Shown here: one piece after another, positions 5,329 through 52,500 of the stretch
Position numbering within the stretch: the stretch's first letter is position 1
Layout: each line of letters starts with the position of its first letter
DNA from: Bacilli bacterium
Lineage (GTDB): Bacteria; Bacillota_I; Bacilli_A; RFN20; CAG-826
NCBI GenBank assembly: GCA_045598525.1
Contig: JAZLMH010000012.1
Span: 4,154 to 68,153, forward strand
Length of the DNA stretch: 64,000 nt
Reading direction: 5' to 3'
Position numbers and translations under genes: made by a program
The notes under the pieces: model-generated
Database searches by the model: none
Seen by the model: the letters and a program-made list of their open reading frames with translations, nothing else
Told to the model about the DNA's origin: nothing

Positions 5329-6747
5329 ATGAAACCATTAACAAAAACCGACATTGAAAAATATGCCTCGTATTTAAACGAGAAGATCGTAGGTAGGCAC
5401 ATTTCTAGTCCTATCTTATACACCGACAAAGTCGTGTTTTTCCGTTTATCTGGTCAACCTTACTCTCGTTTAGCGATTGTTCTAGATGAAGAAGCGCCTC
5501 GCATATACATGGCCCCAGAAGGAGTCGGTGTTACCTCTCTTAGTTCCCACTTCTTCGATCAGTTCAAGAAAGAAATGGTTAACCCATATATCGAATCGGT
5601 CAAGGCTTTTGGCAATGACAGAATCCTTAAAATCTCGATGCTTGTAATCAATAACGTTTTCAAAGAAGAAAGACGAAATCTATATTTAGAAATGTTCCCT
5701 CATCATGTGAACATGATTCTTACCGATAACGAGAACAAGATAACTCTTGCTTATAAGACTGGGCATCTAGGGGAAGATAGACCTATGCTTCGTGGACTCA
5801 TCTATGAAGCCCCTAAAGGTAATGACTTTGTTGCAAAACCTTCGACATTTGATGCATCGATTTATGAAAAAGAATGCCTTTTTGCTGAAGAAATCCTTGC
5901 AAATAAGCGCAAAGCGGACAGATTCTCATATTTAATCAAATCGCTTAAGAACAGAAAAAAGCTTCTTGAGAGAAAGCTTATCTCTTTAGATAAAGACATA
6001 GAGGGAGCGAAAGAACATCTTGATGATGGCCGCTTTGGTGATGCCATCTATATGTGCTTCGATGAGATTGAACCAAAGGCTACTTCCTTTGTTTATGAAG
6101 GCGAAGAAATAAAACTTGACCCTTCTAAAAATGCTGCAATGAATGCCAATCAGTATTACAAAAAAGCCAAAAAGGCAAAGATGACCATGGTTCAAGCTGA
6201 ACTCAATAAAGAAAAGGCGAAGAAAGAAATCGAAGATGTCTCTTTGTCTCTTACACAGTTAGAGCATGCTGATGAGGCCGGATTAGAACTTCTTGCTAAA
6301 GATTTAGATATCGCAATCGTTAATCAAAACAAAAAGAAACATAGCGATAAATGGAACGGCTTATCTTCCGCCTCTCTCCCTTACTTTATAGAGTATAAGG
6401 GAACAAAGATTCTATACGGAAAGAATCAAAAGCAAAATGACTGCTTAACTTTCCTTTTTGAAACAGCAAAAGAACACCTCTGGTTACATGTAATGGGCAA
6501 TTCTGGATCTCATGTTGTGATCAAGAAGGATAATCCAGCGGAAGATGAAATTAAAGTTGCAGCCGAAGTTGCGTTAATAAACTCTCACCAGGAAGAAGGC
6601 GAAGTCATGATCGCCTATAGAAAAGACGTAAGAAAAGGCAACGTTCCTGGACAAGCCATTGTAAAAACCTTCAAAACGTATAGACTTAATAAAGTTTCTA
6701 GAGAAACCAAGCAATTGGTTGAAGAAGCTAGAAAGTACGCATTCTAA
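5329..6747 (+). CDS. rqcH: NFACT-family ribosome quality control protein (RqcH/FbpA-like), a short 472-aa form
   Basis: NFACT-N with the DR motif (FGNDRILKI), a central Lys-rich coiled coil, and NFACT-R/DUF814 (LHVMGNSGSHVVIK). Confidence 0.78.
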   Translation: MKPLTKTDIEKYASYLNEKIVGRHISSPILYTDKVVFFRLSGQPYSRLAIVLDEEAPRIYMAPEGVGVTSLSSHFFDQFKKEMVNPYIESVKAFGNDRILKISMLVINNVFKEERRNLYLEMFPHHVNMILTDNENKITLAYKTGHLGEDRPMLRGLIYEAPKGNDFVAKPSTFDASIYEKECLFAEEILANKRKADRFSYLIKSLKNRKKLLERKLISLDKDIEGAKEHLDDGRFGDAIYMCFDEIEPKATSFVYEGEEIKLDPSKNAAMNANQYYKKAKKAKMTMVQAELNKEKAKKEIEDVSLSLTQLEHADEAGLELLAKDLDIAIVNQNKKKHSDKWNGLSSASLPYFIEYKGTKILYGKNQKQNDCLTFLFETAKEHLWLHVMGNSGSHVVIKKDNPAEDEIKVAAEVALINSHQEEGEVMIAYRKDVRKGNVPGQAIVKTFKTYRLNKVSRETKQLVEEARKYAF

Positions 6748-18790: not shown

Positions 18791-19392
18791 TGTTGTTTTC
18801 TCCTTTTGACTGTTACGGTTTTTTCGTCATGTATTTTGATGAGGTGTGAGTAGCGTTCCACAAGAGGGCGAGCAATTTCTTTGTCTCCTTTGACGGTGAT
18901 TGTTACCTCTTCTTGGAATTCCTCATTCTCGATTGCTACGTTATGGCGGTCTGCTTCTTTTTGAAATGTCGCAAAGTCACTATATGACAAGGACACTCTT
19001 GCTTCGTAGCCTTTTACGAAGTCACACCAAGAAGCTTGTTCTACCGCCTCTAGCCCTACTTCACGGTAAGTTCTAGTTAGGCGTCCTAACCCAAGCTTGG
19101 TTCCGCCAAAATAACGAATTACGACAAGAAGGACATGGTCTACTTCTCTTCCGCGAAGAATCTCTAGAAGAGGTAGGCCAGTACTTCTAGCAGGCTCACC
19201 TTCGTCGCTGCATCTTTCAAAGGGAAGAAGTCTAGCGGCATAAGGATAGTGAGTCGCTTTTGGGTACTCTTCCCTGACTTTAGCTAAGAGGCTGTTGATT
19301 TCCTTTTCATCATCAAAGGGAATAACAAGGCCGATAAATCTAGAGCCAAGGATGACGTATTCATATTTGTTGGTGAGGAATGGGTAGTTCAT
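18787..19392 (-). CDS. yigZ: YigZ/IMPACT family protein (UPF0029)
   Basis: SDEGEPARSTGLPLL and RYFGGTKLGLGRLTRTY motifs. Overlaps the downstream peptidase gene by 4 nt and the giant gene's stop by 1 nt. Confidence 0.8.
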   Translation of the reverse strand: MNYPFLTNKYEYVILGSRFIGLVIPFDDEKEINSLLAKVREEYPKATHYPYAARLLPFERCSDEGEPARSTGLPLLEILRGREVDHVLLVVIRYFGGTKLGLGRLTRTYREVGLEAVEQASWCDFVKGYEARVSLSYSDFATFQKEADRHNVAIENEEFQEEVTITVKGDKEIARPLVERYSHLIKIHDEKTVTVKRRKQQ

Positions 19393-22300
19393 TAGGCGAG
19401 TGATGGGTTAAGGATGATGGCTGCGTTTCTAAGGTAGCCTGTAGCGCCAAATGCTTCAGGGAAGGATGTTGGCTGGGTTCCGAAAGCTCCAGGGTTACTG
19501 ATAAGAAGGATTTCGTAGATAGCTTTTTCATAGTAGCTAGCAACGACGTCTTTATATGGGTAAGCGGCTGGGGCTTCAGAAAGTTCGTTAAGCTTAGCGG
19601 CAATGCCGTTCTTATTTGGCATTCCGGCTGCCTGAGCATCGTTAAGGATTGGCAAGATGTCATTTCTTGTAAGATCAAGGAATCCAATATAGTTGGATGC
19701 GTTTGGAAGGAAGAGAGGGTGCTTAGTTTGATCGCTTGTGAAGTGAGCGCTTAATAAGGCTGCGTCTCTCATATCGGCATAGAATCTACGGGCAAAGCCT
19801 GTTTTGAAGGCTGCCTCGAAGGTATTCCATGAAGCGCTTGTTCCAAGGTATGTTCCAACATGCTCTCCGTTATATGAGAAGGCTGCTGTTGGGATGACAG
19901 CGTATCTGGCTTGAATGTTAGATAAAGCGTTATATGCGCCATAGAAGGTTGCGACTTCAATCATATGGGTGTCTAACCATGCTGATACAGTAACGAGATC
20001 ATCAGCAGAGAAGATGTCGTGTAGGTTCTTATATCCTGGCATGCGGTTAGCCGCGTTATAGTCAGGCATGTATTCAAAGAGGTTGACTGAATAGCTTCCA
20101 AACTGGAATGAGAGGATGCCAGAAGCGCTGACGTCGCCTGCATCGAAATATGCAGAATCTGTCTTGTTGAACTGGCTATCGTACTTCGAGGTGAAGAATG
20201 ATTTATCCGATTTGATGAACCTAACGATCTTTGTGAGCTTTCCAGGTGTTCCAAAGAGTGTTCCAAGAGCGAATGGATCACTTGCGAAGTCAATGTAGCT
20301 ATTTGTCATTTCGCTATAGAAACATCCGCTTGCAACTTCGATAAGCTCATTGATTGCGCCGCTATGGGTTAAACCGTTTTGGACATCAAGTTCAGCCTGG
20401 TTAAGACCGATAATTTTATCAACGCTAAATGTGACTTCGACTTTTGAGATGGTTCCACTTCCAGCAATGGAGACGTCTTTTGCAAGAGGCCTATCCGTGA
20501 TGGATGAGCCGTTGAAGAGAACATATTCATAAGCATTTGGTGCAGGATTTGTTGGGGAAACCGCAAATGTTGAACCGGCTTTCTCATAACTGATTGTTGG
20601 TGCGGCACCGCTAGCCATATAGACTTTGATACCATAAACAGCGTTATCAAGGTCAAGGCTATAAGAAGAAGCGTCAACATCATAAGTTGCTGTGACTTTG
20701 CTAAATTCTTTGAAGTTAATTGTGTCGAGGATTGTCTTCTGGAGTTCGTAAGGAACGAGTTCATAAGCAAGGTCGACTTTGTTTGTTGCGTATAATAACT
20801 CTCCTAATTCGGTTGGTGTCTTGCTTAGGATCTCACTTGAAGAGATTGAGACACCTCCGCCAGAGATGAAGCCAAGATCGATTGCTGTACCAAACAAACC
20901 GCCTGTTAAGTCATCTTTGAGGATGAGATTATCAAGTTCAGTGCCCCACTTGCTGTCCTGATAGTTATTGACCTTATCAAGAATCTTTGCCTGGTATGAG
21001 GCATATTCGCCATCATAAACTTCATTGTATGAAAGTGCGGCTAAACCTGATTGGACATAGAGGTTATACATTGCCTGTTCAAAGACTGGTAAATCGGTGA
21101 CAGTGAAGGAAAGCGAATCATCTGTCTTAAGGAGATAGGAAGCGCCTGCAAGGTGGAATGAGTAAGAATCATCAAGAGCCTTGAGGAAGTTCTTAAGTTT
21201 AAGAATCTGGGTTTTGTTGCTGAGGTTTGTTGTTAACGATGAGTCGGATTTGACGAGGGAGACGATCTTTGCGACAAGCTCGATTTCGTCATCGTCATAT
21301 CTGTTTTCGTAATTGCTGCTCATAAGCATGACACCGGAATTCTCATAGGAGGAACCGCTTAAGGTGATGTTATATTCATATTGGTAATATGGGTTTGCAC
21401 GCTTAAGCTCAACAGCATCAAGAGTCTGAGAGTTGATTGAGCTAGCGATTGCATTAGGAACGATGTCATATGTCCAATCACATTTGTTAAGAGCGTTAAG
21501 GAGGATGCCCATCTGAGACTCGCTTAACGTATCGAATGTGCCATTAGCAAGAGCCGAGGAGAAGCTGCTATCGCTTGTGATGGTGGCTAAAAGCGAACGA
21601 AGTGAATTTGGTGAGGATGGGTCAACTAAGTTAGTGACATCGCTGTTGCTATTTGTGCTGGAGATATAAGGATATGCCTGATTTGCAACATATTTTGCTT
21701 TCTCAAGGGCTGTTACATAGTTAGAAGAATTAGCAGCATCCTTAGGTGAAAGGTTGCTGATGTAATATTCCTTAAGAGCGTCTCCGCCAAATAAAGCACC
21801 CATAACATCCTGAAAGACACTTGTGGTTGCCTCTGATTTGAGGGTGTTAAAGATATTGCTTTGAGCGAAATCCGCTAAAAGGCCTGTAACATTATCGACG
21901 TCGCTAGCTGTTAAGGATGAAATATCAGATAAATCAAGAGAACCGAGTTTAGATGCTTTGCCAAGGATTGAAGCAAGTCTAAAGCATTCGTCTTCATCAT
22001 AGGCGTTTGTTGCATAGTTATATGTATCTACGGTGCCTTTGCCTGCGTAGTAAGTGTTAGCGTTTGTTAAGGAGATGCCGCTTCCTGCAAGGGATCCGCT
22101 TGTTAAGCTTGATAAAGCGCTATCGAACTTCTCTGGGAGCCCAGGATAAAGAAGGCGACTTTCATTAATGTGCATGAGGAGGTTTCCGACAATGTCTTCG
22201 CCATATTCTTTTTCGGTGAAATAGCTATCGAATGATAATCCGCCAGAAATCTCTGATCCCATTGAATGGAAGTCATTAAGAACTTTGCTGAATCTATCGA

Positions 22301-25300
22301 TTTCAATATCCCATCCACCGTTTGCTCTAACATCAGCGTCGATAAGAGGGAGGATTGCTTTTGTTCTTGCCTCTGTTCCATACCAGGAAACACCGCTGAT
22401 TGCGAATTCGATTTGGCCAAGGAATGTTGACTGGGTGATGCCCGCAACGTTTTCCTGGAAGGTTGAAAGGGTTGTGAATGCCTCGGTGCTATTAAGAGCT
22501 TTAAGCATTGGAGCGACAAAGCGATTAGCATCGAGCTTCTCCATCTGAGAGAGCTTAGCTGTATCAAGTTTTCCTGCCGAATCAAGAAGGCCGGTAACTG
22601 GATCGGTGGTGACTTCTAAAATGGTGAGAATTGCATCTCCGATAACTCTACGTTCTGCAATGTCGTTTGTCTGATATGCAAACATGACGTTGGTGTGGCC
22701 AAAAGCCTCACTAGTTGGTGCAAGCATGTTTGCGATTGTTGAAAGAATCTGAGTGATGCCTGTGCGGCCTAAGAGGATTGACTCAGACATATTGTCGAGA
22801 AGTGATTTTAAGTATGGTGTTTTGAAATCGCCAAGATTAGCGTCAATTCCATCAATCATGAGGGCAAGAGCGCCAGATGAAGCGATGCATCTGATAATTT
22901 CCGCTAATCTAACACCTTCTTCTTGGAAGGCCGCTTGGCCTATAGCGACATCAGCCATGCTTCCGCCTTCGATGGCGTAGCTAAGAACATCGTTTTTGAT
23001 TGTGAGATAAGATTCATCGAGCGAAGGGTCTTTGCTTTGTGTTTTGTAAACGCCGCCGTCATATGTTTCTTCGACATCGGTGAAGAATCTTCCAATATCC
23101 CCTGCTCCTTTAGCGAGTTTGACGATCTTGGAAGCAAGGTAGTTAGGGAAGATCCATTTGACTGTATTGCCTGCATCTGGCTGAACGAATAATTGTGAAC
23201 CTGCAAGGTAATTGAAGAGGGTTGTGATCATTTCTGGATCAAGAGACTCTAAAGCAATCGAGGAAATATCTCCGACAATTGATGCATATTTCGTCATTGT
23301 GTCAAGGGCAGCGCCTTCGGCACCCCAATCAGTGACGTTCTTGAATGAGAGCTGGATAGTATTTCCTGATTCATCAACATAGTTGAAGACTGCGTTTGTT
23401 CCAATTGCCCCATCGACGATATCACCCATGATGGTCTTTAGGAGTTCGCTAGAGCCGACTTTGCCAAAGAGTCCGGCAAAAGAGATATTTGACATCATGT
23501 CTAAAGACAGGCCTGATGAGAATGTTGCGAGAAGCTTTTGATCACAAATATATTTGATGAAGTCGACAAAGCCGTTGATTTCGGAATCAAGGTCAAATGC
23601 CTCATCCATGATGACCGCTTTAAGGTTAGCCTTCATTTCTTCATTGCCTAAACCTGTAGAATCGAAAATCATCTGGAAGATGCTATAGATGCTTTCATTA
23701 TATAGAGGCATGCCATGGTCATCGCCAATTGGGTTAAAGATTTTGCTTTCGCCAATGCCAATTAAGAATTTAGCGAGCTGAGGTTCGTTAGAAGCTGTCT
23801 TTAATTGGCAAAGAGCTGAGAAGGTTTTCTCTAAAGCAGCCATGTCGCTTGTGCCGCTAAATGCGCTCATGAGATAAGTCACGACATCTTGGCATTCTGA
23901 ATAGACGCCGATGATTTTTGCAAGTTCATTGCCAAGGATGGATTTGCCGTCTGCATCTTTTGGTACAAGGTCTAATTTGAGGTCAAGGCCAAGTGATGAT
24001 TTAAGGAATCCATCATCCCCTCCAACAAATTTGTTGAGAATTGAAGGGAGGAGATTAGAGAAGATTTTTGAGTTATCGATTGATTTGATGCTTTGTGCTA
24101 AAGCTTCGAGCAATCCGTCTTTAGCGCCTAAGAAGGAGCCGTTCTTATCAAAATATAAGCCTGGAAGATTATCGAAGTCTGAGATTAAGGCTTTGCCTTC
24201 TTCGCTTGCCGCTAATGGGCGGATGACACCAAGAAGATTCTTTGTTTCTTCTTTTGCAGCTTCTTTTTTGCCTTCTAAGTCTTTTGACTTATAGTCGTTA
24301 ACTATTGAAGATAGGTCAATTTTGTCTGCGCCCTCTAAACCAATAGATAAATTGATGGAGTTTTCAAGAATATTGAGGAAGGCTGGGACAGCATTAGCGA
24401 TGAGGCTAGAATCGAGCAAACATTTCTTATCGCTTTCAAGCCCTCTGCCGTCGATAAATTTTTCAACATTGTCGACGTTATTTAAAACAAGAGTGACAAG
24501 GCCGTTGATTTGTTCTTCACCGAAAGAGCCTTCTTCTTCAAATGCTGGAGTGAGAATGAGAGGGAGGAAGCCACTATCGAAATGAGCGAGATCAAAGACC
24601 ACGTCGAAGATAAGTCTGAGTTCATCAACAAAGTTGATGTTTTTGATTGATGAAGGGATGGCGACTGGGCGGCCTTCTGGTGTGCAGTTAAGTTCGTCGC
24701 CTTTTAATTCAGGGAGAAGGTCTTTTAATCCGATGACAATCGTTCCGTCGGCTGCTTCTTCTGCTAGTTTGTATTCTTTGACTGCCTGGACATAGATTGC
24801 GCTGGTGATTAGGTCATTAAAGAAAGCTAGCTCATCTGAGCCTAATGTCTCAAAGAGTGCGTCATAAGTTGCCTGATATTGAGGATCAAGCATCGAGGTG
24901 ACGGTTTCTTGGTTGAAGACGAATTCGCCTGTGATGTCATCGATTGTCACATTTAAGATTCCTGAATCGATGATTGTTTCATAGAGGTCAGCAAGCTTAT
25001 TGAATGTTCCTGCGTGGTCATAGTGAGAAACATCAATTCCTTCTTCAGTCAAAACATATTGGGCGACATCGTCAAAGTGGAGCAATGCGTCAAAGAAGAC
25101 TGGCGCGATTTCCTGGACGAGTTGGGACTGACCGATAGCGCGGAGGAGTTTTGGAGCGTACTGGGAGGTTGCGAAGACCGCAAGAGATTGAGAATCGAAA
25201 CCTTTATCTCCAAGGAGTCCACTATCGATTGCATAGCTTGCGATTTTAATGACTTGGGACAATTCGTTAACGATTGTGAATTTGTCGCCATTTGAAAGGT

Positions 25301-26129
25301 CGATGGTTGAGATGTATGTCATGAAAGCTTCGTCAAATCTCATGCCTGTTTCGCCATCTGCGTACCAGGAGAAAAAGACTTTGCTGAATGCTGAATTGTC
25401 GTAAGTGTCAATTAAACCCGTGATTGTTTGGTAAACGTTTGAATCCACAACAACACGGTTGGAGCTTTCTTCTTCCTTAGGGATTCTTTCAAAGCTTCTG
25501 CTTAAGTTGTTAGCCAAGCTTGTAAGCGGGGAGATGAACATCGCCAAAACGACAACCGACGTGATTGCTTGTTCAAATCCAGAAAGGACTTTGAGGTTCT
25601 TTTTCTTTCTTGCCTCTTTTGGAATGAACCATTTGAAGAGGGCGTGCCAAAGGATTAAGCAAAGGAGGTTGCCGACGATTGCGATGACGATAGCCTCGAC
25701 AATAAGAGCAATGATTGAAGCAAAGGAGAGAGCGATAGCTAAAGCGTATTCCGTGATAGCGGCTGGATCTGCTTTGATGCTAAACGCTTTAAGAAGCTGG
25801 GAGATAACATCTGTTCCTGTTTCTCGGATCGTCGTTAATGGCGACTCAATAAGCACAACGTTCGAATCGATTTCCATTTCGAAAGAAACCGTTTGGTTGA
25901 AGCCGGTCAAACTAAAATCAGCGATTGCTCCGCCAAGAGACTTGAGCGCGAATAACCCGCCCGCGATTAAAAAAGCGAAGAAAACGAAACGGAAAGTACC
26001 ATATTTCCAGCCTTGTAAAAGACCGCGTAGAAAACCGAGGATGAGAACAAGGAACACAAGCCCGAATAAGACCCACATTCCGATGTCAAAGTAGTGAATA
26101 ATTGCTTCTGGGTTAAAATTGAGATCCAT
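19392..26129 (-). CDS. giant (2245 aa) membrane-anchored protein of unknown function, with a CvpA-like multi-TM N-terminus
   Basis: Uninterrupted 6.7-kb ORF. The first ~200 aa carry 4-5 TM helices (VLFGLVFLVLILGFLRGLLQGWKYG...). The remainder has no motif I recognise. Confidence 0.85.
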   Translation of the reverse strand: MDLNFNPEAIIHYFDIGMWVLFGLVFLVLILGFLRGLLQGWKYGTFRFVFFAFLIAGGLFALKSLGGAIADFSLTGFNQTVSFEMEIDSNVVLIESPLTTIRETGTDVISQLLKAFSIKADPAAITEYALAIALSFASIIALIVEAIVIAIVGNLLCLILWHALFKWFIPKEARKKKNLKVLSGFEQAITSVVVLAMFISPLTSLANNLSRSFERIPKEEESSNRVVVDSNVYQTITGLIDTYDNSAFSKVFFSWYADGETGMRFDEAFMTYISTIDLSNGDKFTIVNELSQVIKIASYAIDSGLLGDKGFDSQSLAVFATSQYAPKLLRAIGQSQLVQEIAPVFFDALLHFDDVAQYVLTEEGIDVSHYDHAGTFNKLADLYETIIDSGILNVTIDDITGEFVFNQETVTSMLDPQYQATYDALFETLGSDELAFFNDLITSAIYVQAVKEYKLAEEAADGTIVIGLKDLLPELKGDELNCTPEGRPVAIPSSIKNINFVDELRLIFDVVFDLAHFDSGFLPLILTPAFEEEGSFGEEQINGLVTLVLNNVDNVEKFIDGRGLESDKKCLLDSSLIANAVPAFLNILENSINLSIGLEGADKIDLSSIVNDYKSKDLEGKKEAAKEETKNLLGVIRPLAASEEGKALISDFDNLPGLYFDKNGSFLGAKDGLLEALAQSIKSIDNSKIFSNLLPSILNKFVGGDDGFLKSSLGLDLKLDLVPKDADGKSILGNELAKIIGVYSECQDVVTYLMSAFSGTSDMAALEKTFSALCQLKTASNEPQLAKFLIGIGESKIFNPIGDDHGMPLYNESIYSIFQMIFDSTGLGNEEMKANLKAVIMDEAFDLDSEINGFVDFIKYICDQKLLATFSSGLSLDMMSNISFAGLFGKVGSSELLKTIMGDIVDGAIGTNAVFNYVDESGNTIQLSFKNVTDWGAEGAALDTMTKYASIVGDISSIALESLDPEMITTLFNYLAGSQLFVQPDAGNTVKWIFPNYLASKIVKLAKGAGDIGRFFTDVEETYDGGVYKTQSKDPSLDESYLTIKNDVLSYAIEGGSMADVAIGQAAFQEEGVRLAEIIRCIASSGALALMIDGIDANLGDFKTPYLKSLLDNMSESILLGRTGITQILSTIANMLAPTSEAFGHTNVMFAYQTNDIAERRVIGDAILTILEVTTDPVTGLLDSAGKLDTAKLSQMEKLDANRFVAPMLKALNSTEAFTTLSTFQENVAGITQSTFLGQIEFAISGVSWYGTEARTKAILPLIDADVRANGGWDIEIDRFSKVLNDFHSMGSEISGGLSFDSYFTEKEYGEDIVGNLLMHINESRLLYPGLPEKFDSALSSLTSGSLAGSGISLTNANTYYAGKGTVDTYNYATNAYDEDECFRLASILGKASKLGSLDLSDISSLTASDVDNVTGLLADFAQSNIFNTLKSEATTSVFQDVMGALFGGDALKEYYISNLSPKDAANSSNYVTALEKAKYVANQAYPYISSTNSNSDVTNLVDPSSPNSLRSLLATITSDSSFSSALANGTFDTLSESQMGILLNALNKCDWTYDIVPNAIASSINSQTLDAVELKRANPYYQYEYNITLSGSSYENSGVMLMSSNYENRYDDDEIELVAKIVSLVKSDSSLTTNLSNKTQILKLKNFLKALDDSYSFHLAGASYLLKTDDSLSFTVTDLPVFEQAMYNLYVQSGLAALSYNEVYDGEYASYQAKILDKVNNYQDSKWGTELDNLILKDDLTGGLFGTAIDLGFISGGGVSISSSEILSKTPTELGELLYATNKVDLAYELVPYELQKTILDTINFKEFSKVTATYDVDASSYSLDLDNAVYGIKVYMASGAAPTISYEKAGSTFAVSPTNPAPNAYEYVLFNGSSITDRPLAKDVSIAGSGTISKVEVTFSVDKIIGLNQAELDVQNGLTHSGAINELIEVASGCFYSEMTNSYIDFASDPFALGTLFGTPGKLTKIVRFIKSDKSFFTSKYDSQFNKTDSAYFDAGDVSASGILSFQFGSYSVNLFEYMPDYNAANRMPGYKNLHDIFSADDLVTVSAWLDTHMIEVATFYGAYNALSNIQARYAVIPTAAFSYNGEHVGTYLGTSASWNTFEAAFKTGFARRFYADMRDAALLSAHFTSDQTKHPLFLPNASNYIGFLDLTRNDILPILNDAQAAGMPNKNGIAAKLNELSEAPAAYPYKDVVASYYEKAIYEILLISNPGAFGTQPTSFPEAFGATGYLRNAAIILNPSLA

Positions 26130-29278: not shown

Positions 29279-29303
29279 TAAAAAAAGAAGGGTATCCCCT
29301 TCT
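29279..29303 (-). terminator. intrinsic terminator ending the 33598-29305 operon
   Basis: On the minus strand: AGAAGGG-GATA-CCCTTCT followed by TTTTTTT. Confidence 0.8.
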
Positions 29304-29304
29304 G

Positions 29305-29595
29305 TTACTTAAGAGGTTCCTTCTTTATTGTTTTTAAGAAATAGAGAATGACGACTACGGCGTTTATCATGAATAGCATTACCATGGGAAGGACGATCAA
29401 AAATTTAAAAACATCAGGGTTTTGCTGTAAAAATCCTATGTAATTGTCTGGATAATGGCCAAGCGCCTGTTCGATCTTATCTGGCAAGGTCACAATCATG
29501 ATGATTGAGGTCAAGAGGAAAAAGAGCGATAAGAGGACATCCAAACTGAAGAAGACTCCAGTGACTATTTTCTTTTTGTTTAATGTTATTTTCAT
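29305..29595 (-). CDS. small (96 aa) two-TM membrane protein, last gene of the riboswitch-led operon
   Basis: ATG at 29595, 2 nt after the stop of the 1052-aa gene. Two hydrophobic helices. Confidence 0.6.
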   Translation of the reverse strand: MKITLNKKKIVTGVFFSLDVLLSLFFLLTSIIMIVTLPDKIEQALGHYPDNYIGFLQQNPDVFKFLIVLPMVMLFMINAVVVILYFLKTIKKEPLK

Positions 29596-29597
29596 GC

Positions 29598-32500
29598 TTA
29601 CCACGTTGACTCCACTGAGGCTGGAACAGACACCGTTGGCGTGGCTCCAGCTACTAATTCAAATTCTCCTGTTGGAGTAGTTTTGACATAGACATTATAT
29701 TCAGACGAATAATAGTTAAAGATTTTTAAGGACGCTTCTTTATCTGCATAGCAGGTGATGAAATATGTGCCTTTCTTTGAGCCTTCTACATCTTCTGCAT
29801 ATTCTTCGTTTTTGACGTATCTGACATTTGTTAAATATGTGTAGTCGACATAATCGCCGCCGGCTGTTGGGTTTTCTAAGAAGAAATTAAGGATGGTGTT
29901 ATCAATTGTGTCTGTAGCGTTTCTATAACCAATCTGACCGAAAGAACCACCGAAACCGTCTTGAGCCTTATACTCGAAGTCGATGTTAGTGATCCAGGTG
30001 TCGTTTCCTCTATTGGACTGGCCGCCAAGAACAAGGATATATGTATCAATCTTGACTTGTTCTTCTTTGGTCATGGATGTCGTGCCATCAGAATTATATG
30101 TGCCTAAAACTCTTCCTTCGGCATCTAAAGCGCAGTACGAGACTTTCTGGACGTCTTCTTCCATGAGGTCTAAAGAAATGTTATGAGTAACATTAATAAA
30201 CCCAGTGTCTTCTGATTCAACGATGTTTGTTCCTGCACTCTTCAAAGACATAAACTCATTGCCTTTTTTGAATGAAGGATCAACTAGGTCCAACGAGTAA
30301 CCTAAGATGGTTGCTTGGACATAGGTAAAGGAGATCTTACCTAAAGCATCGTTTCTTCCATCGACTGCGTTAGATGTGTTTTTCAAATAAACGACAATGG
30401 AACTTCTACAGTTTTCCTCTGCAAAGAACAACTGGCCTTTTGCTGGTGCTGGGCCTACAAATTCACCTGCTGTTCGTTCGGAATTTAAAGAAAGAACAGC
30501 GATTGAGATTCTATTTCCTAAAAGACTGAAGTTTTGATAATAGAACTCTGCTCCACCACCTACGACATCGATATTCTTTGAACGATATCCGGACTCACGA
30601 ACTAATGTTTCTTCTGAAACAAAGTATTCTTTTGTTTGTGGGTTTTGAAGAACATCCCTTCTAATGATGACCAATTTCCAGACAGGTAAACTGCCGTTAA
30701 ACCCAGGTGTATATAAGAAGCTTGTGTTATATGACTCGTTTATTTCAGGGATTGTGACAAAAGCATCTTGCTCAACACCATCAATAACTTCCTTAAATAA
30801 TATAGGGGCCTCAAATGTTCTTGGGTCAACGTGAGGGAGAGTTTCATTTGGATTGAAAGTAAAGGTCGTTCTCTCAACCCTGTCGTTAGAAACTTTGATT
30901 AATGCGTTGTAATTTGTTTGATCTGTGTTTGAGTCGATTTTTGTAAAATCGTTTCCAACATCTAAATGAACACCCTGAAGAGTATCGTTAACAACAATCT
31001 CTTTTTGGCTAAGTTTTCCAGTTGTTGCGTCATATCCTCCACAGACGTAGGACGCTCTTCTTGTGCCACCGCCCCAAGGATAAGTGAATGAGAAGATGAT
31101 TGAATAATGATGTCTGCCTTCTTGTATGTTTTGAAGATGGATTGTGTTTGCCTTGAAATTTAAATTGTACCAAAGAACATTGGTACGAGTTGCTGTGAAA
31201 GTGAAAGGAATATTTATGTAATTATTTGCGGTTACTCTTCCGCCAGGATCTTTTGTGTAACCATCCGCATCCCAATATAATCTAGCGTCAATTGAGACGT
31301 TTCTTTCTGAAATTCCACCGATTTTGATTTCGTCGATGTTAAAGGTAAAATCCTCAATATTCAAATCAAAATCATAGACGTCATAACCAGAGATAACTTG
31401 TCTATCAAAAGATTCGCCATACATGAAACAATGGTTTTTTTCGCTCCAATAGTAATATGGGGTTGGAGCTTCTTCTCTTGTTTCGGTGTTAACAATTAAA
31501 CCTTCACCTGAGCCTTTAAGAGAGTGGTCATAATATAACGGTTGGTTAACAGGTGCTTTGATTGCGCCGTCGTGGGAAGTATTGCTTCCGTCATTATCCA
31601 TGTATCCTCTATCTTGGTAATAGACATTGTATTCATGCTTTTGCTCAACAAATTCAGGCGAAGCATAACCAGATGTCGATAAAGAGTAACCATCTTGAAT
31701 TAAATATGTGCCTGAACCTGCTGCTCTATCTGGCGCGATCGCATTTGAGAATGGGACAATATGTTGGCCGTCAGTGGTCATTCTCTTTGTTTTATCGCCA
31801 TCGTCATTTGGGGTTTCATTATATGTTGCTCTTGTGTTTCTTAAGACGAGCTGCTGATTTTTGATTGAATCATAGGTCGTATTGAAATAGTTATAGACGG
31901 CCTGTGAATTTAAGGAGAATTGGTAGTCACGGCCATAACCTAAACCGCCGCCTAAAGCATCTTGCTCTGCTCTGCCATAGTAACCGTAGTTATTGATGTG
32001 AAGGCCGCTTGTTGTACCTTTAAGAGTGCAGTTATTAACATATACGTTCTGGAAGTTTTGTGTCTCATCTAAGTGACCTGCGATATAACCAAAATGGACT
32101 GCGCCTTTCTGGTGGACGTGTCCTGTTTCGGCATTTAATTCATCTTCTGTTGGTTCGGTGTAATGTGTACCTGTTGTATCAATGATGAAGTCGCTGAAGT
32201 ATGTGTTTAAGCAAGTGCCATGACCGACGAAGCCAAAAATACCGATATCGCAGAATTGGTCTCTTGTCGCGTCAATATGGAATCCGGAAACAGTCATGTT
32301 GTTTCCCTCGATATGCGCGTTAAATGGTTTTTTAACGGAACCAAGAGGGGCTAAGGAAGCGATACGGTCACAGTTAAGAATCTTTGAATAACCATTTCCT
32401 TCTGAATTATCGACTTTACCATCTTTGTAGTTATAGACTTCGATTGTTTCTGGATTGCCATCAAGGTCGGTGCCGATTTCAAAATAGAATTCCTTTTCAG

Positions 32501-32756
32501 CAAAACCTTCGAGGTTATAGTGAAGAAGGACCATGTTTTCGTAGTGTCTAGGTCTAGTGATGATGAATGGATGCTCTTCTGAGCCGTCGCCATCATGGAA
32601 ATATTTCTGAAGGACTGAGCCGGTTAAACCATCTTCTATATCAATTTTGTTCTCGTTATAGAACCAAGCAGCAGAAAGACCGCTTGCGACAAGGAGAGCC
32701 CCTGAGCAAACGGCGGAGACTAATAACACTAATTTGGACTTTAATGATTTTTTCAT
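29598..32756 (-). CDS. large (1052 aa) exported or N-terminally anchored protein; putative adhesin or matrix component with a SipW-type 'AAWF' N-terminus
   Basis: N-terminus MKKSLKSKLVLLVSAVCSGALLVASGLSAAWFYNE, followed by GDGSEEHPFIITRPRHYENM...IEGNNMTVSGFHID...IGIFGFVG (beta-helix/GLUG-like start). GGAGGG RBS. TAATG overlap with the upstream gene. Confidence 0.8.
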   Translation of the reverse strand: MKKSLKSKLVLLVSAVCSGALLVASGLSAAWFYNENKIDIEDGLTGSVLQKYFHDGDGSEEHPFIITRPRHYENMVLLHYNLEGFAEKEFYFEIGTDLDGNPETIEVYNYKDGKVDNSEGNGYSKILNCDRIASLAPLGSVKKPFNAHIEGNNMTVSGFHIDATRDQFCDIGIFGFVGHGTCLNTYFSDFIIDTTGTHYTEPTEDELNAETGHVHQKGAVHFGYIAGHLDETQNFQNVYVNNCTLKGTTSGLHINNYGYYGRAEQDALGGGLGYGRDYQFSLNSQAVYNYFNTTYDSIKNQQLVLRNTRATYNETPNDDGDKTKRMTTDGQHIVPFSNAIAPDRAAGSGTYLIQDGYSLSTSGYASPEFVEQKHEYNVYYQDRGYMDNDGSNTSHDGAIKAPVNQPLYYDHSLKGSGEGLIVNTETREEAPTPYYYWSEKNHCFMYGESFDRQVISGYDVYDFDLNIEDFTFNIDEIKIGGISERNVSIDARLYWDADGYTKDPGGRVTANNYINIPFTFTATRTNVLWYNLNFKANTIHLQNIQEGRHHYSIIFSFTYPWGGGTRRASYVCGGYDATTGKLSQKEIVVNDTLQGVHLDVGNDFTKIDSNTDQTNYNALIKVSNDRVERTTFTFNPNETLPHVDPRTFEAPILFKEVIDGVEQDAFVTIPEINESYNTSFLYTPGFNGSLPVWKLVIIRRDVLQNPQTKEYFVSEETLVRESGYRSKNIDVVGGGAEFYYQNFSLLGNRISIAVLSLNSERTAGEFVGPAPAKGQLFFAEENCRSSIVVYLKNTSNAVDGRNDALGKISFTYVQATILGYSLDLVDPSFKKGNEFMSLKSAGTNIVESEDTGFINVTHNISLDLMEEDVQKVSYCALDAEGRVLGTYNSDGTTSMTKEEQVKIDTYILVLGGQSNRGNDTWITNIDFEYKAQDGFGGSFGQIGYRNATDTIDNTILNFFLENPTAGGDYVDYTYLTNVRYVKNEEYAEDVEGSKKGTYFITCYADKEASLKIFNYYSSEYNVYVKTTPTGEFELVAGATPTVSVPASVESTW

Positions 32757-33598
32757 TAGTTGGTCCCTCCTGCATAGAATTGGAGTTTAGTGATATCGCA
32801 GATAAAAGAGATTGAATAAGATTCGAGGTTATCAGCAGTAGCCTTTTCATCCGAAGAGTGTTCGAAATAGTAGTCGACAAGAGTGTCTTTGTAGAAGTAT
32901 TCAAGATACAAGACAGTGACTTGGTCATCTGCTGTTTCGTCTACGTCCAAATTATTGAAGATGATTGTGTTATCTTCGACTTTGGTGCCGACTTCTTGAC
33001 CTAAGGCTCCGCTAAGAGAGACGTAGCTCTTAGTATCGTCAATGCCCTCAAAGACTTTGTAGGCGCTATCATAAATTGATTCAGCGCTTGATTCATCAAA
33101 TGCTGAAGGATTTGCTAATTCGTGTCTAAGGAAGTATTTGAAGCCAATGATGTTTGACATGTTTCTAGTAACCATTGATTGGTTATCAAGGAATGAGCCA
33201 GAACAAGGCACCCTTAAAGAGAAACGGGAAGATGCATCTGTTGTTCCGTTTGATTTAACTTCGATTCTTAAGACTTTGTTGTTATAAACGTTTCTTTCAG
33301 GAATGAAAGAGTCGTATTGAGGGAGGGCGAACTTAGAAGTGAAGACATCATTTTTGTCTTCGTCTTTGATTACTCTATCTTCTGCTACTCTGCCAGTAAG
33401 GTTATCTTGATCATATTCGTAGACCTGGAAATCTACATCGAGGGCATCGTCATCTGAGACAGCGAATGCCTGAGTTGCTGCTTCAGCGTTTCTAATGGTT
33501 GTGAACCAAGCGGCAGTTAAGGAGACAAACATGGTTGCACAGGAAAGGATGGTCAATCCAATAAGACCAGCCGCCTTTGCCTTGTACTTTCTTTCCAT
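32756..33598 (-). CDS. 280-aa exported protein with a SipW-dependent-type signal peptide (TasA/camelysin-like candidate)
   Basis: N-terminus MERKYKAKAAGLIGLTILSCATMFVSLTAAWFTTIRNAEAATQAFAVSDDDALDVDF resembles the ..GTxA[YF]F[TS]D.. class. AAGGAG RBS 9 nt upstream. Confidence 0.75.
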   Translation of the reverse strand: MERKYKAKAAGLIGLTILSCATMFVSLTAAWFTTIRNAEAATQAFAVSDDDALDVDFQVYEYDQDNLTGRVAEDRVIKDEDKNDVFTSKFALPQYDSFIPERNVYNNKVLRIEVKSNGTTDASSRFSLRVPCSGSFLDNQSMVTRNMSNIIGFKYFLRHELANPSAFDESSAESIYDSAYKVFEGIDDTKSYVSLSGALGQEVGTKVEDNTIIFNNLDVDETADDQVTVLYLEYFYKDTLVDYYFEHSSDEKATADNLESYSISFICDITKLQFYAGGTN

Positions 33599-33636
33599 AG
33601 AAGCACTCTCCTTAGACTGGTGGCTTTTATTCCCTT

Positions 33637-33666
33637 AAAAAATAAAAACCAACCCAATGAGTTGGC
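33637..33666 (-). terminator. leader (attenuator) terminator upstream of the 280-aa gene
   Basis: On the minus strand: GCCAAC-UCAUUG-GGUUGG followed by UUUUUAUUUUUU. It lies 38 nt upstream of the start codon, so it is within the 5' UTR. Confidence 0.6.
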
Positions 33667-33730
33667 AGCTGGCTACCCCGAAGGGCCCTTTAGTTTTGCG
33701 TCACTAGATTTCTCTAGTTTTGCTTTTTAC
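33664..33730 (-). promoter_or_regulatory. candidate c-di-GMP-I (GEMM-I-like) riboswitch aptamer
   Basis: Minus-strand RNA AAGCAAAAC-UAGA-GAAA-UCUA-GUGACGCAAAACUAAAGGGCCCUUCGGGGUAGCCAGCUGCC. It contains GCAAAC-like, GNRA-hairpin, GACGCAAA and AGCC..CUGCC blocks. Its 3' end overlaps the terminator's 5' arm. Confidence 0.45.
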
Positions 33731-33737
33731 ATTCATA

Positions 33738-33765
33738 ATTATATCCAAGACCAATTAATTATCAA
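33738..33765 (-). promoter_or_regulatory. promoter TTGATA-N16-TATAAT driving the riboswitch leader
   Basis: Near-consensus hexamers on the minus strand, about 140 nt upstream of the ATG at 33598. Confidence 0.55.
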
Positions 33766-33902
33766 CTTTATTTTATAAAAAATATCGAGGAATACTTGTT
33801 TTTGCCAAATACTTTAAAAGTTTTTTTCGTAAAAAACAACGCGAAAAATACAACTAATAGAATATCAAAAAAAGAGATTTTAAGCGGTTTTTGCTGGGGG
33901 TT

Positions 33903-35099
33903 TTAGTGAATATCGGCCACTAAAGGATGGATGTCTGCGTTGCCTTGGATTCTTGCTCTTCCGCCTACTGGAACACCATCTGAATCAGTATCGAGAACGA
34001 AGCTCATTTTTGTGTTATTCATCTTTTCGTCATGCTTGTTTGCATGGGTTGCTTTGTTTAAATAATTGCCCTCAAGCATATACGAGACCTTGTTTGTTGT
34101 ATCGAGGTCATAGGTGTATTGAGTAACTGAGTTGTACTTAACGGCGATATGTGTTGTTGTTCCTGTTACCGTTCTTTCATAAACAATCTCGTCACCATAT
34201 GTGGCATTGAATGTTTTGACAGCCTCTGTGTTTGTAGGATTCATCAAAGTGATAGTGAATTCCTTATATGACTTATCGTATGCTGACTCAAATTCGAGTT
34301 TGAGACTATTGCTTGAAAGCTTCCCAAGTTCAACCCATTTGTCTCCATCGCTGATGAAGGTGTCATATGCTGGCATATGATCAACTAAAGATTTGTCTAA
34401 GTAAATGACGCCTGCGTTGCCTGCTGCATCCCCTGCTTCTGGAGAACCTAAGCCCCAAGCTGGTTGACCCGCGTTCGTTCCTGATTTCCAAACATAAGCA
34501 GGCGATTCTGAAGCGACAAATTTGTGCTTTGCTGAAGCCGTGTCTTTTGAAAGAGTCCAGCCAGCGAAATTATAGTTATTGTAGTATTCAGTTTTTTCTT
34601 CGACAGGATTGGTTGAAGGGAAAGAAAGAGCAGTTCCAAAATCCACTTTTGTTCCTCCAGCGATGGCTTTGCCATCATTTTTGAAGGATGTTTCTATTTT
34701 GTATGCTTCTTCTTTGAATGTTGCGACGACCTTGCAGTTGCTTTGAATGTTATTTAAATCGACTGCCTGACCATCTAATTCTTCTTTAGCATTTCCATAA
34801 GTTTTGTCGTATGTTCCAACCCATTCATCAAAAACGTATCTGCTCCCTGGGTTTGTAATTTCTAAATCACTATGAGGATTCCAGTCGTAACTGGTTCCAT
34901 CCATTGGTCTGAACGGTCCCGATTTTCCCTCGATGACATATGCGTAACCGACCTGAGTTCCTGCCTCATCAAAGTAGTCAACCTGATAAACCGGGGAGCC
35001 TTTGTGGTTTTCATCACCTTCGGTGGCACATCCAAATAATGCCCCTGTTAGCAATAAACTGCTGAGCATTAAAACTTTTTGGAACTTGGTTTTTTTCAT
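33903..35099 (-). CDS. surface lipoprotein (398 aa) with F-x-GW beta-repeat-like segments
   Basis: Lipobox LLLTGALFGCATEG. Contains RYVFDEWVG and YNFAGWTL, reminiscent of Listeria-Bacteroides-type repeats. Confidence 0.6.
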   Translation of the reverse strand: MKKTKFQKVLMLSSLLLTGALFGCATEGDENHKGSPVYQVDYFDEAGTQVGYAYVIEGKSGPFRPMDGTSYDWNPHSDLEITNPGSRYVFDEWVGTYDKTYGNAKEELDGQAVDLNNIQSNCKVVATFKEEAYKIETSFKNDGKAIAGGTKVDFGTALSFPSTNPVEEKTEYYNNYNFAGWTLSKDTASAKHKFVASESPAYVWKSGTNAGQPAWGLGSPEAGDAAGNAGVIYLDKSLVDHMPAYDTFISDGDKWVELGKLSSNSLKLEFESAYDKSYKEFTITLMNPTNTEAVKTFNATYGDEIVYERTVTGTTTHIAVKYNSVTQYTYDLDTTNKVSYMLEGNYLNKATHANKHDEKMNNTKMSFVLDTDSDGVPVGGRARIQGNADIHPLVADIH

Positions 35100-49509: not shown

Positions 49510-52500
49510 TTATCTTATTCCAACCATTCCGTCAGGAGCGAGATATAAACCGTTTCTTCTAGAACAGTTCCATTTGATTGCGGCTCTTACATATTCGAAG
49601 GCCGTTTTCTTTAAGACGGAGTAGCCAAAGGCTTCATTGACTTCGTGGCAAAGATCTTCCACTGTCATCTTGCCTTGGTTGGTTACAAGATCTGCCGCAC
49701 AGTTACCGATCTCAATATAGGAGATGTCGATTAGCCTACGGAAGTCTCCTTCAAGAGACTCTCTCCAGTAAGTGTTGTTGCTTGGATTGATGTTTCTTGG
49801 GTAGTAGAAATTCTTGCCGCCGCAGCTTTCCTGGCTGAATGAGAGTTTCTGAAGAGCGAGGTTGAACTTGTTTCTTGTGATTGAGCCAATGCGGCCAAGG
49901 CCAAACGCTTTTCTAAATCTTTCTTCTAGAACTTCTTGGGACATTGGGAATTCTGTTCCAACCGCTTCGATGAAGAAGGAAAGCATATCAGATTCATTTA
50001 AGAGTTCTGGATTGAACTTAGGAGTGAATTCAACGATTGTGTACGGTCTCTTGTTAGGGTTGGCGTTAACAACTTTCTTGACAAAGAGAGGATCTTTTTG
50101 GGACTCTTTCTCATCAACAAACTTTTCTCCTGCAAGAGATCTGTTATAAGAATTGATGATGCTCTTGATGACTTCTTCTTTATGATCAAGATATTCGACA
50201 CTATAGAGATAATGGATGTTCCAGTTAAGTCTATGTAAGACAGCAGGCTCATTGATATGTCTATCTCTACAAGTAAGAATTGAGTTTTTATTGTTATCGA
50301 TGATGATGCCTAGGACATAGTCATTAGGGTTCTCTTTTGAAGAGATGGCAAGGTCGATCTTGAATGTGCTTGACCCAAGGTTTTCTTTTACGACATAGCC
50401 AAGCTTCTCAAGGTCTTTTGCTAAGAAGGTGGCGATTGAATTAGGTTCATCGCCCATTTCATTAGCGCTGCGGTTAGCTAAAGAAGATACGCCTTTTTGA
50501 GCGAAAAGAAGGAAGTCTCTAAGATATTTAGCACCCATGTTCTTGGCTCTTTCCGCTGGAATCTCTTGTGGCTTCATCGATGAGAAGACGATCATTTCTT
50601 CTCTTGCGCGGCTTACTGCGACGTTAAGTCTTCTTTCACCTTTCTTTTGCGAGAGAGGACCGAAGTTAAGGGATAAGCCGAGTTTCTTGTCTGGGCCATA
50701 GGTTGTGGAGAAGAGAATTACATCTCTTTCATCGCCTTGGACATTTTCTAAGTTTTTGATGAAGATCTTCTCTCCGCCTGGGGTTGGATCATAATCAGTT
50801 TTGGCAAGCTGCTTTTCAAGCATGTCATCGATGAGGTTTTGCTGGGCTTCATTGAAAGTAACAACACCAATTGAGTGGGTGCGAAGTTTTTCATCTTGGA
50901 GTCTACGCATAATCTCTGCGACAACTTCTTTGGCTTCCGCTCTATTGATTCCTTTGCCTCTTTCGTAATCGCCTTTGACATATTTATACGAGACGGATTC
51001 TTTTTCCTGAGCAGGTGAAGGGAATGTAAGAAGGGTGTTCTCGTAGAAACGGTTATTTGAGAAGGCAATAAGAGACTCGTGGCGGCTTCTATAGTGCCAG
51101 TTGAGTCTTTCTCTTGGGAAGTTTAAGGAAATTGCGTCGTCAAGGAGGGACTCGAGGTCTTCATCCACGCTATAAAGTGAGGCAGAACCATCGTCGCCAA
51201 GACTTGTTGATGAAACGAAGAAATTAGACGGAGGCATCTGCTGCTCATCGCCAGCGATGATAACCGAATCCGCTCTAGCCATAGCGCCGACTGCTTCGCT
51301 TGTTGGAATTTGAGAAGCTTCATCGAAGATTACGACATCGAAATGATATGTATCCATATTGAGATATTGAGCAACCGCGACAGGAGACATCAAGAAACAT
51401 GGAGTGAGGGTTTCGATGAGATCCTTAAATTCATCAAAGATGTAGCGGACTGAAGCGCCTCTTCCACCATTCTTTGCAAGTTTGGTGAGCTTATAGGCAT
51501 CTGTGCTGGTTGCAAAGCTTTCGGCGTTCTTTGGATATTTTTCTGTGATTTTGGCTGCGACAACATTGACGGAAAGTCTTTGGAGTTCGTCCATTTGAGC
51601 GCGATACGTGCGTAATAATTCTTCCTGAGAAGACATGCTCAATGAACTTAATCCTCTTTCTGGAAGAACTTTTCCAAGAATTGCGAAATAGACGTCTGCC
51701 TTAAAGCTTCTAAGGAGGTTTTCTTCTTTAATTTCTGCTCTGGTGTATCTTTCAAAGAAATCTTTATCGAGGAGTTCTTTCATGGCGTTAAGGTATTCAA
51801 GGAGGTTGCACCATTCGCTTAAGCGACCACTAGAAGCGCTTGCGTCATTTAACTTGCCACCGAGGAATTTGAAGTAGTCATTGGTGTCGCCATATAAGGA
51901 AATATCTGTCTCATAGCGGTATAAGAGTTCTTCTTTCTTCTTTTCGAAGGCTCCAAAGCATTGTTTTAACTGGGTATTTGCCCTGCTAAAGATTGCGCCT
52001 CTTCCTGCGCCGCTAAGATAATGAGCGAAAACCTCTTCCCTGCCGTCTTTGAAATCCATGTTTTGGATGTTTTTGGCGAGATCTAATGTAGTTTCTAATT
52101 CATGAATTCTTAATGCGCTTTCTGCTGCATTTGAGAAGTCGTATTCGTTAAGGATGAATCTAGCAAAAGAATCTGCATTTTTAACATTTTCTTCGTCAAA
52201 ACTTACTTGTTTTAATAATTCAAGGGACTTTTTGAGACCATCTTTCTTTAGTGCTGTTTTGTCGTTTAAGAATGGTTTTAGTCTCTTTTTGAATTTGTTT
52301 TCCGCCAGGGCTCTTTTAAAGAATCCGAGTTTTTCGATTTCCTCATATTCAGCGAATAAGGCATTAGCATCGAAGGATGTGAAAACTTCTTGTTTGAAGC
52401 TAACTAAAACTGCATCTCTTTCTGATGCGAGTTTGGCTTTTAAAGAAGCGAGTTCAAGAAGTTCTTTCTCATGTTCAACGAATTCTCTATTTAAGTAATG

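Follow-up and report, generated by a model that had tools for sequence, protein, structure and literature searches.

What signal does the long leader in front of an orphan gene of an uncultured Bacilli bacterium sense, and how does this leader act on the gene? We analyzed a stretch of 64,000 nucleotides (nt) from contig JAZLMH010000012.1 (assembly GCA_045598525.1), which is called the window throughout. On its minus strand an element at 33765–33637 precedes an operon whose first gene (32756..33598) encodes a protein of 280 amino acids (aa). An earlier interpretation of the DNA letters, referred to here as the sequence-only reading, had proposed a class I riboswitch (GEMM-I) for c-di-GMP (cyclic diguanosine monophosphate) with a terminator as expression platform. 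As a whole, our results are probably best explained by a functional class I c-di-GMP riboswitch that serves as a transcriptional ON switch of a three-gene operon for apparently secreted or surface proteins.

Family membership and structure of the aptamer

The whole window was scanned on both strands against 4227 Rfam families at their gathering scores. RF01051 (c-di-GMP-I / GEMM-I) matches at 33734–33661 of the minus strand with 56.5 bits, compared with a gathering score of 35 (E 2.2e-8), and the match is full-length (model positions 1–87 of 87). Apart from three tRNAs nothing else in the window reaches a gathering score. The sequence-only reading had named an RF01051 match above this threshold as its test and c-di-GMP-II (RF01786) as a control. 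The former was found, and the latter gave no match at E≤10 in 33500–33900 and none at gathering score in the whole window. The conserved GEMM-I blocks are present, namely GCAAA, a P2 helix capped by a GNRA loop, GACGCAAA and AGCC..GCUGCC. The element is a genuine member of the c-di-GMP class I (GEMM-I) riboswitch family. The variant family RF03167 (c-di-GMP-I-GGC) appeared in permissive scans and was rejected, since its 50.1 bits fall below the gathering score of 59 and the element has the canonical GACGCAAA rather than the signature GACGCGAA / GGC.

The aptamer extends from the 5' strand to the 3' strand of P1 (33660..33733, minus strand), as supported by RF01051, by covariation and by our own covariance model R1, which scores it with 85.5 bits. 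With the structure of the RF03167 alignment, the P1 5' strand AAUG (33730..33733) pairs through G33730–C33664, U33731–A33663 and A33733–U33660, so that P1 is a very short helix of 2–3 pairs. It is followed by the 6-nt J1/2 segment UAAAAA (33724..33729). The last nucleotide of J1/2, A33724, is equivalent to G20 of the Vibrio cholerae aptamer Vc2 and to A14 of Gs1761 from Geobacter, the position that reads the first ligand base (PMC6274999; PMC6140456). P2 (33698..33723) consists of a GC/GC closing helix of two base pairs, an internal loop and the stem ACUAGA/UCUAGU with a GAAA tetraloop (33712–33709). This stem has six base pairs and not the four assigned to it by the sequence-only reading. In the orthologs described below the loop is mostly of the GYRA type, and GYRA loops in nature favor plain helix receptors (PMC7913685). 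The J2/3 adenine A33697 corresponds to A47 of Vc2 and A41 of Gs1761, which intercalates between the two ligand bases (PMC6274999; PMC6140456). P3 (33667..33695) is minimal and is built from AACU/AGCU, GG/CC, an AG bulge and GCCC/GGGU with a UUCG loop (33682–33679); its second pair, at the base of the helix, is an A33694–C33668 mismatch. J1/3 comprises G33666 and C33665 (33665..33666), of which C33665 is the equivalent of C92 in Vc2 and C75 in Gs1761, which forms a Watson-Crick pair with the second ligand base (PMC6274999). Thus, the intercalating A and the Watson-Crick C are both present and lie in the invariant blocks GACGCAAA and GCUGCC, respectively. In the crystal structure of Gs1761, J1/2 has 6 nt and ends in A14, P2 starts at C15, J2/3 is the single nucleotide A41, and J1/3 is G74–C75 (PMC6274999).

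With Vc2, the type example of RF01051, the element shares the three-helix junction, the four conserved blocks, the intercalating A, the Watson-Crick C and a place in the 5' untranslated region of an operon for apparently secreted or surface proteins. In contrast to Vc2 it has A instead of G at position 20, a P1 of only 2–3 pairs, the A–C mismatch in P3 and a G-C-rich, UUCG-capped stub of a P3. This stub has 6 nt where the RF01051 consensus has 19, and it lacks the 11-nt receptor for the GAAA tetraloop (CUAAG..UAUG in the Rfam consensus).

Covariation in orthologous leaders, a check named by the sequence-only reading, was found. Ten contigs encoding homologs of the 280-aa protein were retrieved (L001, L003–L011). 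The orthologous gene is immediately preceded by the aptamer in L001 (at both of its tandem copies of the gene pair), L004, L005, L007, L008 and L011, and partial copies are found at the contig ends of L006, L009 and L010. Leaders that reach far enough upstream carry the aptamer, with the exception of L003, in which the GACGCAAA core is lost. When the ten orthologous leaders are taken by themselves, eight of the pairs are changed on both sides: UA/CG in P1; AU/CG, UA/CG, AU/GC, GC/AU and AU/GC in P2; and CG/UA twice in P3. For these leaders a MAFFT alignment was abandoned, as the 5' side of P3 was one column off in three rows, and the covariance-model alignment was used.

In the leader of the L003 ortholog P0008 (L003:3790–3900) a P2-like hairpin, ACUAGA-AUAA-UCUAGU, and GGGCCC are kept, and GACGCAAA and GCCAGCUGCC are gone. 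This leader is matched neither by Rfam nor by R1 and is filled by a long hairpin followed by AUUUUUU. Judged from this arrangement, the riboswitch of L003 would be either lost or replaced by something else.

A pattern of the conserved core with a short P3 matched at least 120 stretches in species-representative genomes. The matches listed, to which the counts for the wider subfamily given below refer, come from Bacillota, Mycoplasmatota/Izemoplasmatales, Omnitrophota and others, and the nearest relatives of the aptamer among them belong to metagenome-assembled genomes (MAGs) labeled 'Bacilli bacterium' from sheep rumen and horse faeces. R1 was built from 13 equal-length members with the Rfam structure, and 130 matches were aligned. 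In this alignment 91.2% of the pair cells are paired, compared with 22–38% when the partners are slid. Double changes occur in 19 of the 21 pairs, and none of 500 shuffles reaches the observed values. Compensation is rich in all six pairs of the P2 stem. The first P1 pair is GC in 102 of 126 sequences, and the second is compensated (CG/UA/UG/AU). Since the pattern left the P2 and P3 stems unconstrained, this covariation is independent of the way in which the sequences were selected.

Overlap of aptamer and terminator

Transcription is expected to start at about 33733–33731, the 5' edge of P1. A consensus scan places a sigma-70-type promoter at 33738..33765 (minus strand), with the -35 element TTGATA at 33765–33760, a 16-nt spacer and the -10 element TATAAT at 33743–33738. 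With 11 of 12 consensus matches it is the top site in the 800-nt region scanned. The orthologous leaders, read by eye, have a -35/-10 pair of the same type at the same distance from the aptamer; therefore, their transcripts should likewise begin at the P1 5' edge. From the 3' end of the aptamer on follow an intrinsic terminator (33637..33666), with an 8-bp stem GCCAACUC/GGGUUGGU at 33666–33648, the loop AUU and the U-tract UUUUAUUUUUU at 33647–33637, and the start region of the 280-aa gene (33596..33613), read directly as a Shine-Dalgarno site AAGGAG at 33613–33608, a 9-nt spacer and ATG at 33598–33596. Promoter and terminator scans together with direct reading thus find these features where the sequence-only reading had placed them, and its transcription of the minus-strand leader proved correct in every element.

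The 5' arm of the terminator, G33666–C33659, joins J1/3 with its C92 equivalent to the 3' strand of P1. Since this arm is made of aptamer nucleotides, the bound aptamer and the terminator are mutually exclusive. The overlap of the terminator with the aptamer 3' strand, already pointed out in the sequence-only reading, agrees with the terminator scan and with the folding energies. In the nearest-neighbor model the aptamer closed by P1 has -7.8 kcal/mol, the aptamer without P1 -15.4 kcal/mol, and P2 and P3 combined with the terminator -24.6 kcal/mol; the terminator hairpin alone has -9.2 kcal/mol. From this gap it follows that termination is the default state and that the ligand must make up the difference under kinetic control.

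We propose the following course of events. Transcription would begin with the 5' edge of the aptamer. In the ligand-free RNA, P1 with its 2–3 pairs would fail to hold, G33666–C33659 would pair with GGGUUGGU to give the terminator, and the transcript would stop in the U-tract (33647–33637). A cyclic dinucleotide in the three-way junction would have A33724, A33697 and C33665 as its contacts. Both C33665 and the P1 3' strand would then be locked, the 5' arm of the terminator would be blocked, and the polymerase would read into the operon. We infer this ON direction from the architecture and from the precedent of pilM in Geobacter, an experimentally characterized ON switch in which aptamer and terminator exclude each other (PMC9262584).

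In the orthologous leaders L007 and L011 and in L039 and L082 the terminator 5' arms are also recruited from 3' nucleotides of the aptamer, but from different ones; CCAGCU is drawn into the terminator in L011 and L082. What close relatives have in common is the switch logic and not the sequence.

Two ways in which the leader might not be an ON switch have to be weighed here. Conceivably the ligand promotes termination, as in the OFF switch Cd1 of Clostridioides difficile, and many GEMM-I riboswitches of Firmicutes are indeed OFF switches (PMC9262584). Cd1, located in front of flgB, resembles our element in aptamer family, Firmicute host and intrinsic terminator. However, it has a separate anti-terminator and a long binding window, whereas the window element has the opposite logic with direct overlap of aptamer and terminator (PMC9262584). 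For an OFF switch, an anti-terminator in competition with aptamer and terminator alike is required, but here the terminator 5' arm belongs to the aptamer itself, and the cargo resembles surface proteins, for which induction by c-di-GMP is usual. We therefore regard an OFF switch as very unlikely. Even harder to uphold is the view that the element is a decayed or chance aptamer-like sequence devoid of regulatory function, with the terminator acting as a constitutive attenuator. The ortholog in L003 has lost the GACGCAAA core and yet kept its leader terminator, and thus aptamer decay does occur in this gene family. In the window, however, the match scores well beyond the gathering threshold, every junction nucleotide is intact save the known A20 variant, and the helices are kept by compensatory changes across orthologs whose cargo is 49–83% identical to that of the window.

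Some further features of these leaders should be mentioned. No leader terminator is seen in the distant orthologs L001 (5912–6040 and 9950–10070), L004 (75–200), L005 (1–76) and L008 (762–890), in which the start codon follows 11–14 nt past the aptamer with no clear Shine-Dalgarno site. For L001 (copy at 5912), L004 and L008 an alternative fold is predicted in which the aptamer 3' GCUGC(C) pairs with GCAGC of the Ala-Ala codons in the signal peptide and encloses the AUG. These three leaders are candidates, by structure prediction only, for a translational ON platform; if this is true, the expression platform has been swapped inside one gene family. In the window, the minimum-energy fold of the extended leader (33616–33655, minus strand) pairs the terminator 3' arm and the U-tract with AAUAAAAGCCACCAG just 5' of the Shine-Dalgarno site. 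The block AAAAGCCACC is kept in the closest relatives L006 and L009 and is not kept in L007 and L010. Upstream, the terminator scan found no terminator between the gene of a 398-aa lipoprotein (33903–35099) and the riboswitch promoter (33766–33902, minus strand). Therefore, read-through from the lipoprotein gene would also meet the riboswitch terminator.

Position 20 and the ligand

At position 20, Vc2 and the RF01051 consensus have a G that recognizes the first guanine by its Hoogsteen face; the nucleotide of the window at this position is A33724. This exchange was hidden in the comparison of GCAAA(A)C with GGCAAACC on which the sequence-only reading had relied: the first G of the consensus is A here. 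Hence, of the proposed c-di-GMP-I identity the family assignment stands, and c-di-GMP as the ligand is likely but not certain.

In the wider subfamily (141 sequences among the matches listed) 94 sequences have G at position 20, 43 have A and 4 have C, the last being L028:4391, L058:3486, L061:4682 and L117:811. A minimal P3 of 17 nt is common to 13 genome sequences, and the second P3 pair, the A–C mismatch of the window, is non-standard in 15 of 126 sequences. Because they recur in this way, the minimal P3, the mismatch and A20 are deviations within the natural variation of GEMM-I. Among these matches A20 and G20 sequences are not clearly set apart by a base at any other aptamer position. The best associations of A20 are with U as the first nucleotide of J1/2 and with G in front of the C92 equivalent; both are partial and may be explained by shared ancestry alone. 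Tandems of two or three GEMM-I aptamers are frequent (L018, L031, L037, L047, L087, L098, L114, L118). Mixed tandems are found in L029 and L031, with A in one copy and G in the other, and in L061, with A and C.

Known A20 aptamers differ widely in their preference, from 1200–1600-fold selectivity for cyclic GMP-AMP (cGAMP; PMC6456294) to preference for c-di-GMP (PMC6140456). The cGAMP-selective GEMM-Ib aptamers pilM and Gs1761 of Geobacter resemble the window element in A20, in the G before the C92 equivalent, in transcriptional ON control with mutually exclusive aptamer and terminator, and in a cargo of extracellular or surface structures. In contrast to them, the window element is like c-di-GMP aptamers in its GC/GC closing pairs and its GACGCAAA core, its relatives encode canonical, non-Hypr GGDEF proteins, and its host is a gut bacterium of the Bacillota type. 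The best functional analogs are Cbe 1-2, a natural A20 aptamer from the Firmicute Clostridium beijerinckii, and the Vc2 G20A variant. Both combine the GEMM-I core with A20; they are likened to our element by their published description and not by sequence. The affinities of the pair lie at 30–53 nM for c-di-GMP and 120–463 nM for cGAMP, with individual values of 30 and 463 nM for Cbe 1-2 and of 53 and 120 nM for Vc2 G20A (PMC6140456). A20 aptamers hold c-di-GMP tightly by means of a protonated adenine (PMC6140456).

The enzymes encoded near related aptamers also bear on the ligand. In the related MAG L001 two GGDEF-EAL genes precede the orthologous operon, one of them with an intact canonical GGDEF domain. 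The guanine-reading residues of PleD, Asn335 and Asp344 (PleD alignment indices), lie in 'KINDxFGHxxGD', and Hypr enzymes are recognized by Ser in place of Asp at the residue facing the Watson-Crick edge (PMC6456294). In the retrieved loci 13 GGDEF open reading frames (ORFs) lie near subfamily aptamers; every one of them has Asn and Asp as the canonical pair, and the Hypr Ser occurs in none. Three of the 13 lie near A20 aptamers, in L001 (beside the orthologous operon), L034 and L067. The canonical GGDEF enzymes of the relatives and the published affinities of A20 aptamers make c-di-GMP the likeliest physiological ligand. We thus consider c-di-GMP rather than 3',3'-cGAMP the likely, though not certain, ligand and cGAMP selectivity unlikely.

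L001 holds three aptamers within 10 kb. The third, again with A20, precedes a gene for a 1018-aa protein with a degenerate GGDEF and an EAL domain (L001:50–3267 for aptamer and gene together). This protein is likely a phosphodiesterase, and its position suggests a riboswitch-controlled feedback loop acting on the signal itself.

Several observations weigh against our reading of the locus and have to be set beside the alternatives. Position 20 is A in the window and in each of the 8 orthologous leaders with a complete 5' end, which is the defining change of GEMM-Ib (PMC6456294; PMC6140456). In Geobacter, A20 marks cGAMP-selective riboswitches, and an A20G exchange flips the selectivity of Gmet_0970 (PMC6456294). 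Accordingly, the element could be a 3',3'-cGAMP-selective GEMM-Ib switch in which A33724 pairs with the adenine of cGAMP supplied by a Hypr GGDEF enzyme or a CD-NTase. The tendency of A20 to co-occur with G 5' of the C92 equivalent, in 36 of 41 A20 sequences against 33 of 79 G20 sequences among the matches listed, is in line with this. However, A20 alone leads to bispecific aptamers, as seen with Vc2 G20A, and Cbe 1-2 even favors c-di-GMP about 15-fold (PMC6140456). In Geobacter, the lower P2 and P1 contribute to the selectivity as well (PMC9262584; PMC6140456), whereas in the window the canonical GC..GACGCAAA core is retained. Beside the A20 aptamers of L001, L034 and L067, the GGDEF proteins show Asp as in canonical enzymes and not the Hypr Ser. 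No cGAMP synthase was seen in the retrieved loci of relatives, a search that did not extend to CD-NTases. Selectivity for cGAMP is therefore distinctly improbable. Somewhat more room has to be left for a physiologically bispecific switch that integrates c-di-GMP and 3',3'-cGAMP, or for a role of A20 that merely lowers the affinity and shifts the c-di-GMP threshold. Published A20 aptamers bind both ligands with nanomolar dissociation constants (PMC6140456), tandem sites mix A20 and G20 copies (L029 and L031), and the recurrence of A20 in 43 of 141 sequences suggests that it is selected and not accidental. Nevertheless, no sign of cGAMP production by these organisms was seen, and binding in vitro does not establish a physiological role. 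Hence, this too is unlikely.

The remaining points against a c-di-GMP-responsive ON switch with surface cargo concern the host, the strength of the switch and the cargo. No GGDEF, EAL or HD-GYP motif occurs within the 64-kb window, and thus the c-di-GMP metabolism of the host, on which a refuting condition of the sequence-only reading (a genome free of diguanylate cyclase genes) had turned, can be deduced from its relatives only. A P1 of 2–3 pairs and the missing 11-nt receptor imply that the affinity is probably below that of the textbook Vc2. The decision window before the 3' arm of the terminator emerges appears to be short. Among the products of the operon, described below, the 280-, 1052- and 99-aa proteins have no match in Pfam or NCBIfam, and the first two have no sequence match in the PDB. 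The AlphaFold model of the 280-aa protein, with a beta-rich body, a predicted local distance difference test (pLDDT) score of 74 and a predicted template modeling (TM) score (pTM) of 0.73, has no significant neighbor in a Foldseek search (best E 0.015, TM score below 0.3).

The operon and its orphan cargo

The 280-aa protein has a hydrophobic N-terminus, an invariant AWFT directly past it and a beta-rich body. The second gene (29598..32756, minus strand) starts in overlap with the stop codon of the first and encodes a protein of 1052 aa, which likewise has a hydrophobic N-terminus, with a signal of the same type (..SAAWFY..) at the position that matches AWFT. A possible third gene (29305..29604, minus strand) encodes 99 aa with two predicted membrane helices and shares 7 nt with the 3' end of the gene for the 1052-aa protein. 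This third gene was not seen after the L001 ortholog. The operon ends in a strong terminator found by the terminator scan, AGAAGGGGAUACCCUUCU with a U-run (29286..29303, minus strand). In all contigs of sufficient length, the ortholog of the 280-aa gene has a large gene behind it. The cargo in the lineage of the window is a pair of a small and a giant gene. The surrounding DNA is ordinary chromosomal DNA with a G+C content of 41%, an F-type ATP synthase operon, prolyl-tRNA synthetase and tRNAs. Elsewhere in the window lie two giant ORFs on the minus strand, 19392–26129 (2245 aa) and 49510–55368 (1952 aa); the 2245-aa ORF has no NCBIfam match.

The family of the 280-aa protein is very small, with 15 clusters at 90% identity among 5.8 billion sequences, and the one member with a name is a hypothetical protein from a MAG labeled 'Bacilli bacterium'. 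When 1.84 billion representatives were searched by profile, 187 relatives came up, some of which are N-terminal domains of proteins of 950–1600 aa with Big_2, Big_3 and PKD domains. A domain shared by the 280-aa family and the 1052-aa protein was considered and rejected, since a profile comparison aligns the N-terminal signal only (probability 47%).

The segment ..T(Y/F/A)AWFT.. resembles what we take to be a signal of the TasA/SipW type, and no support for this was found. Eight cargo N-termini or whole proteins gave no NCBIfam match at E≤10, neither Pfam nor the PDB lent support, and SipW/TasA cargo was rejected except as a tentative lead. The TasA fiber ranks ninth in the Foldseek search (E 0.068, TM 0.26, not significant), and none of the window proteins scanned comes from a SipW-like gene.

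Proteins with x-(A/S)-W-(F/I)-(T/S) after a hydrophobic N-terminus are encoded downstream of 23 of 43 A20 aptamers and 16 of 97 G20 aptamers among the matches listed, by a regular expression that is loose and includes a few false positives. Such AWFT-type cargo (L012–L131; window 33490–33598) recurs in Bacillota and Mycoplasmatota, across Bacilli, Izemoplasmatales and Clostridia, and those proteins that were tested match no named family. Past the signal, the motif YF.DGDGS...P(Y/F)II...H.YN is present in the 1052-aa protein and in large proteins of L063 (a Faecalibacterium prausnitzii isolate) and L106. Judged by this motif, these proteins would represent a second orphan family with the same regulation.

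The cargo looks like uncharacterized, apparently secreted or cell-surface proteins, and from this we infer a surface or adhesion function. The adhesin, pilus or matrix genes expected by the sequence-only reading thus fit in their secreted or surface appearance, while their function is deduced for proteins that belong to no named family. As a more speculative extension, which we consider rather unlikely at present, the A20 aptamers with minimal P3 that occur in uncultured gut Bacilli and in relatives of these may constitute a subclass with a function of its own, linked to AWFT cargo as a new fiber or adhesin induced by a cyclic dinucleotide.

The riboswitch call itself is routine: Rfam-based annotation would find the element, and A20 and the minimal P3 are within known GEMM-I variation. 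It shows signaling of the c-di-GMP type in an uncultured, host-associated lineage of Bacilli. Moreover, it marks a very rare, uncharacterized family of secreted proteins, and a riboswitch is a good pointer to the function of orphan genes. A natural A20 aptamer whose relatives lie beside canonical diguanylate cyclases bears on the role of A20 outside Geobacter. The interest of the locus thus lies mainly in its orphan cargo and in what A20 does outside Geobacter.

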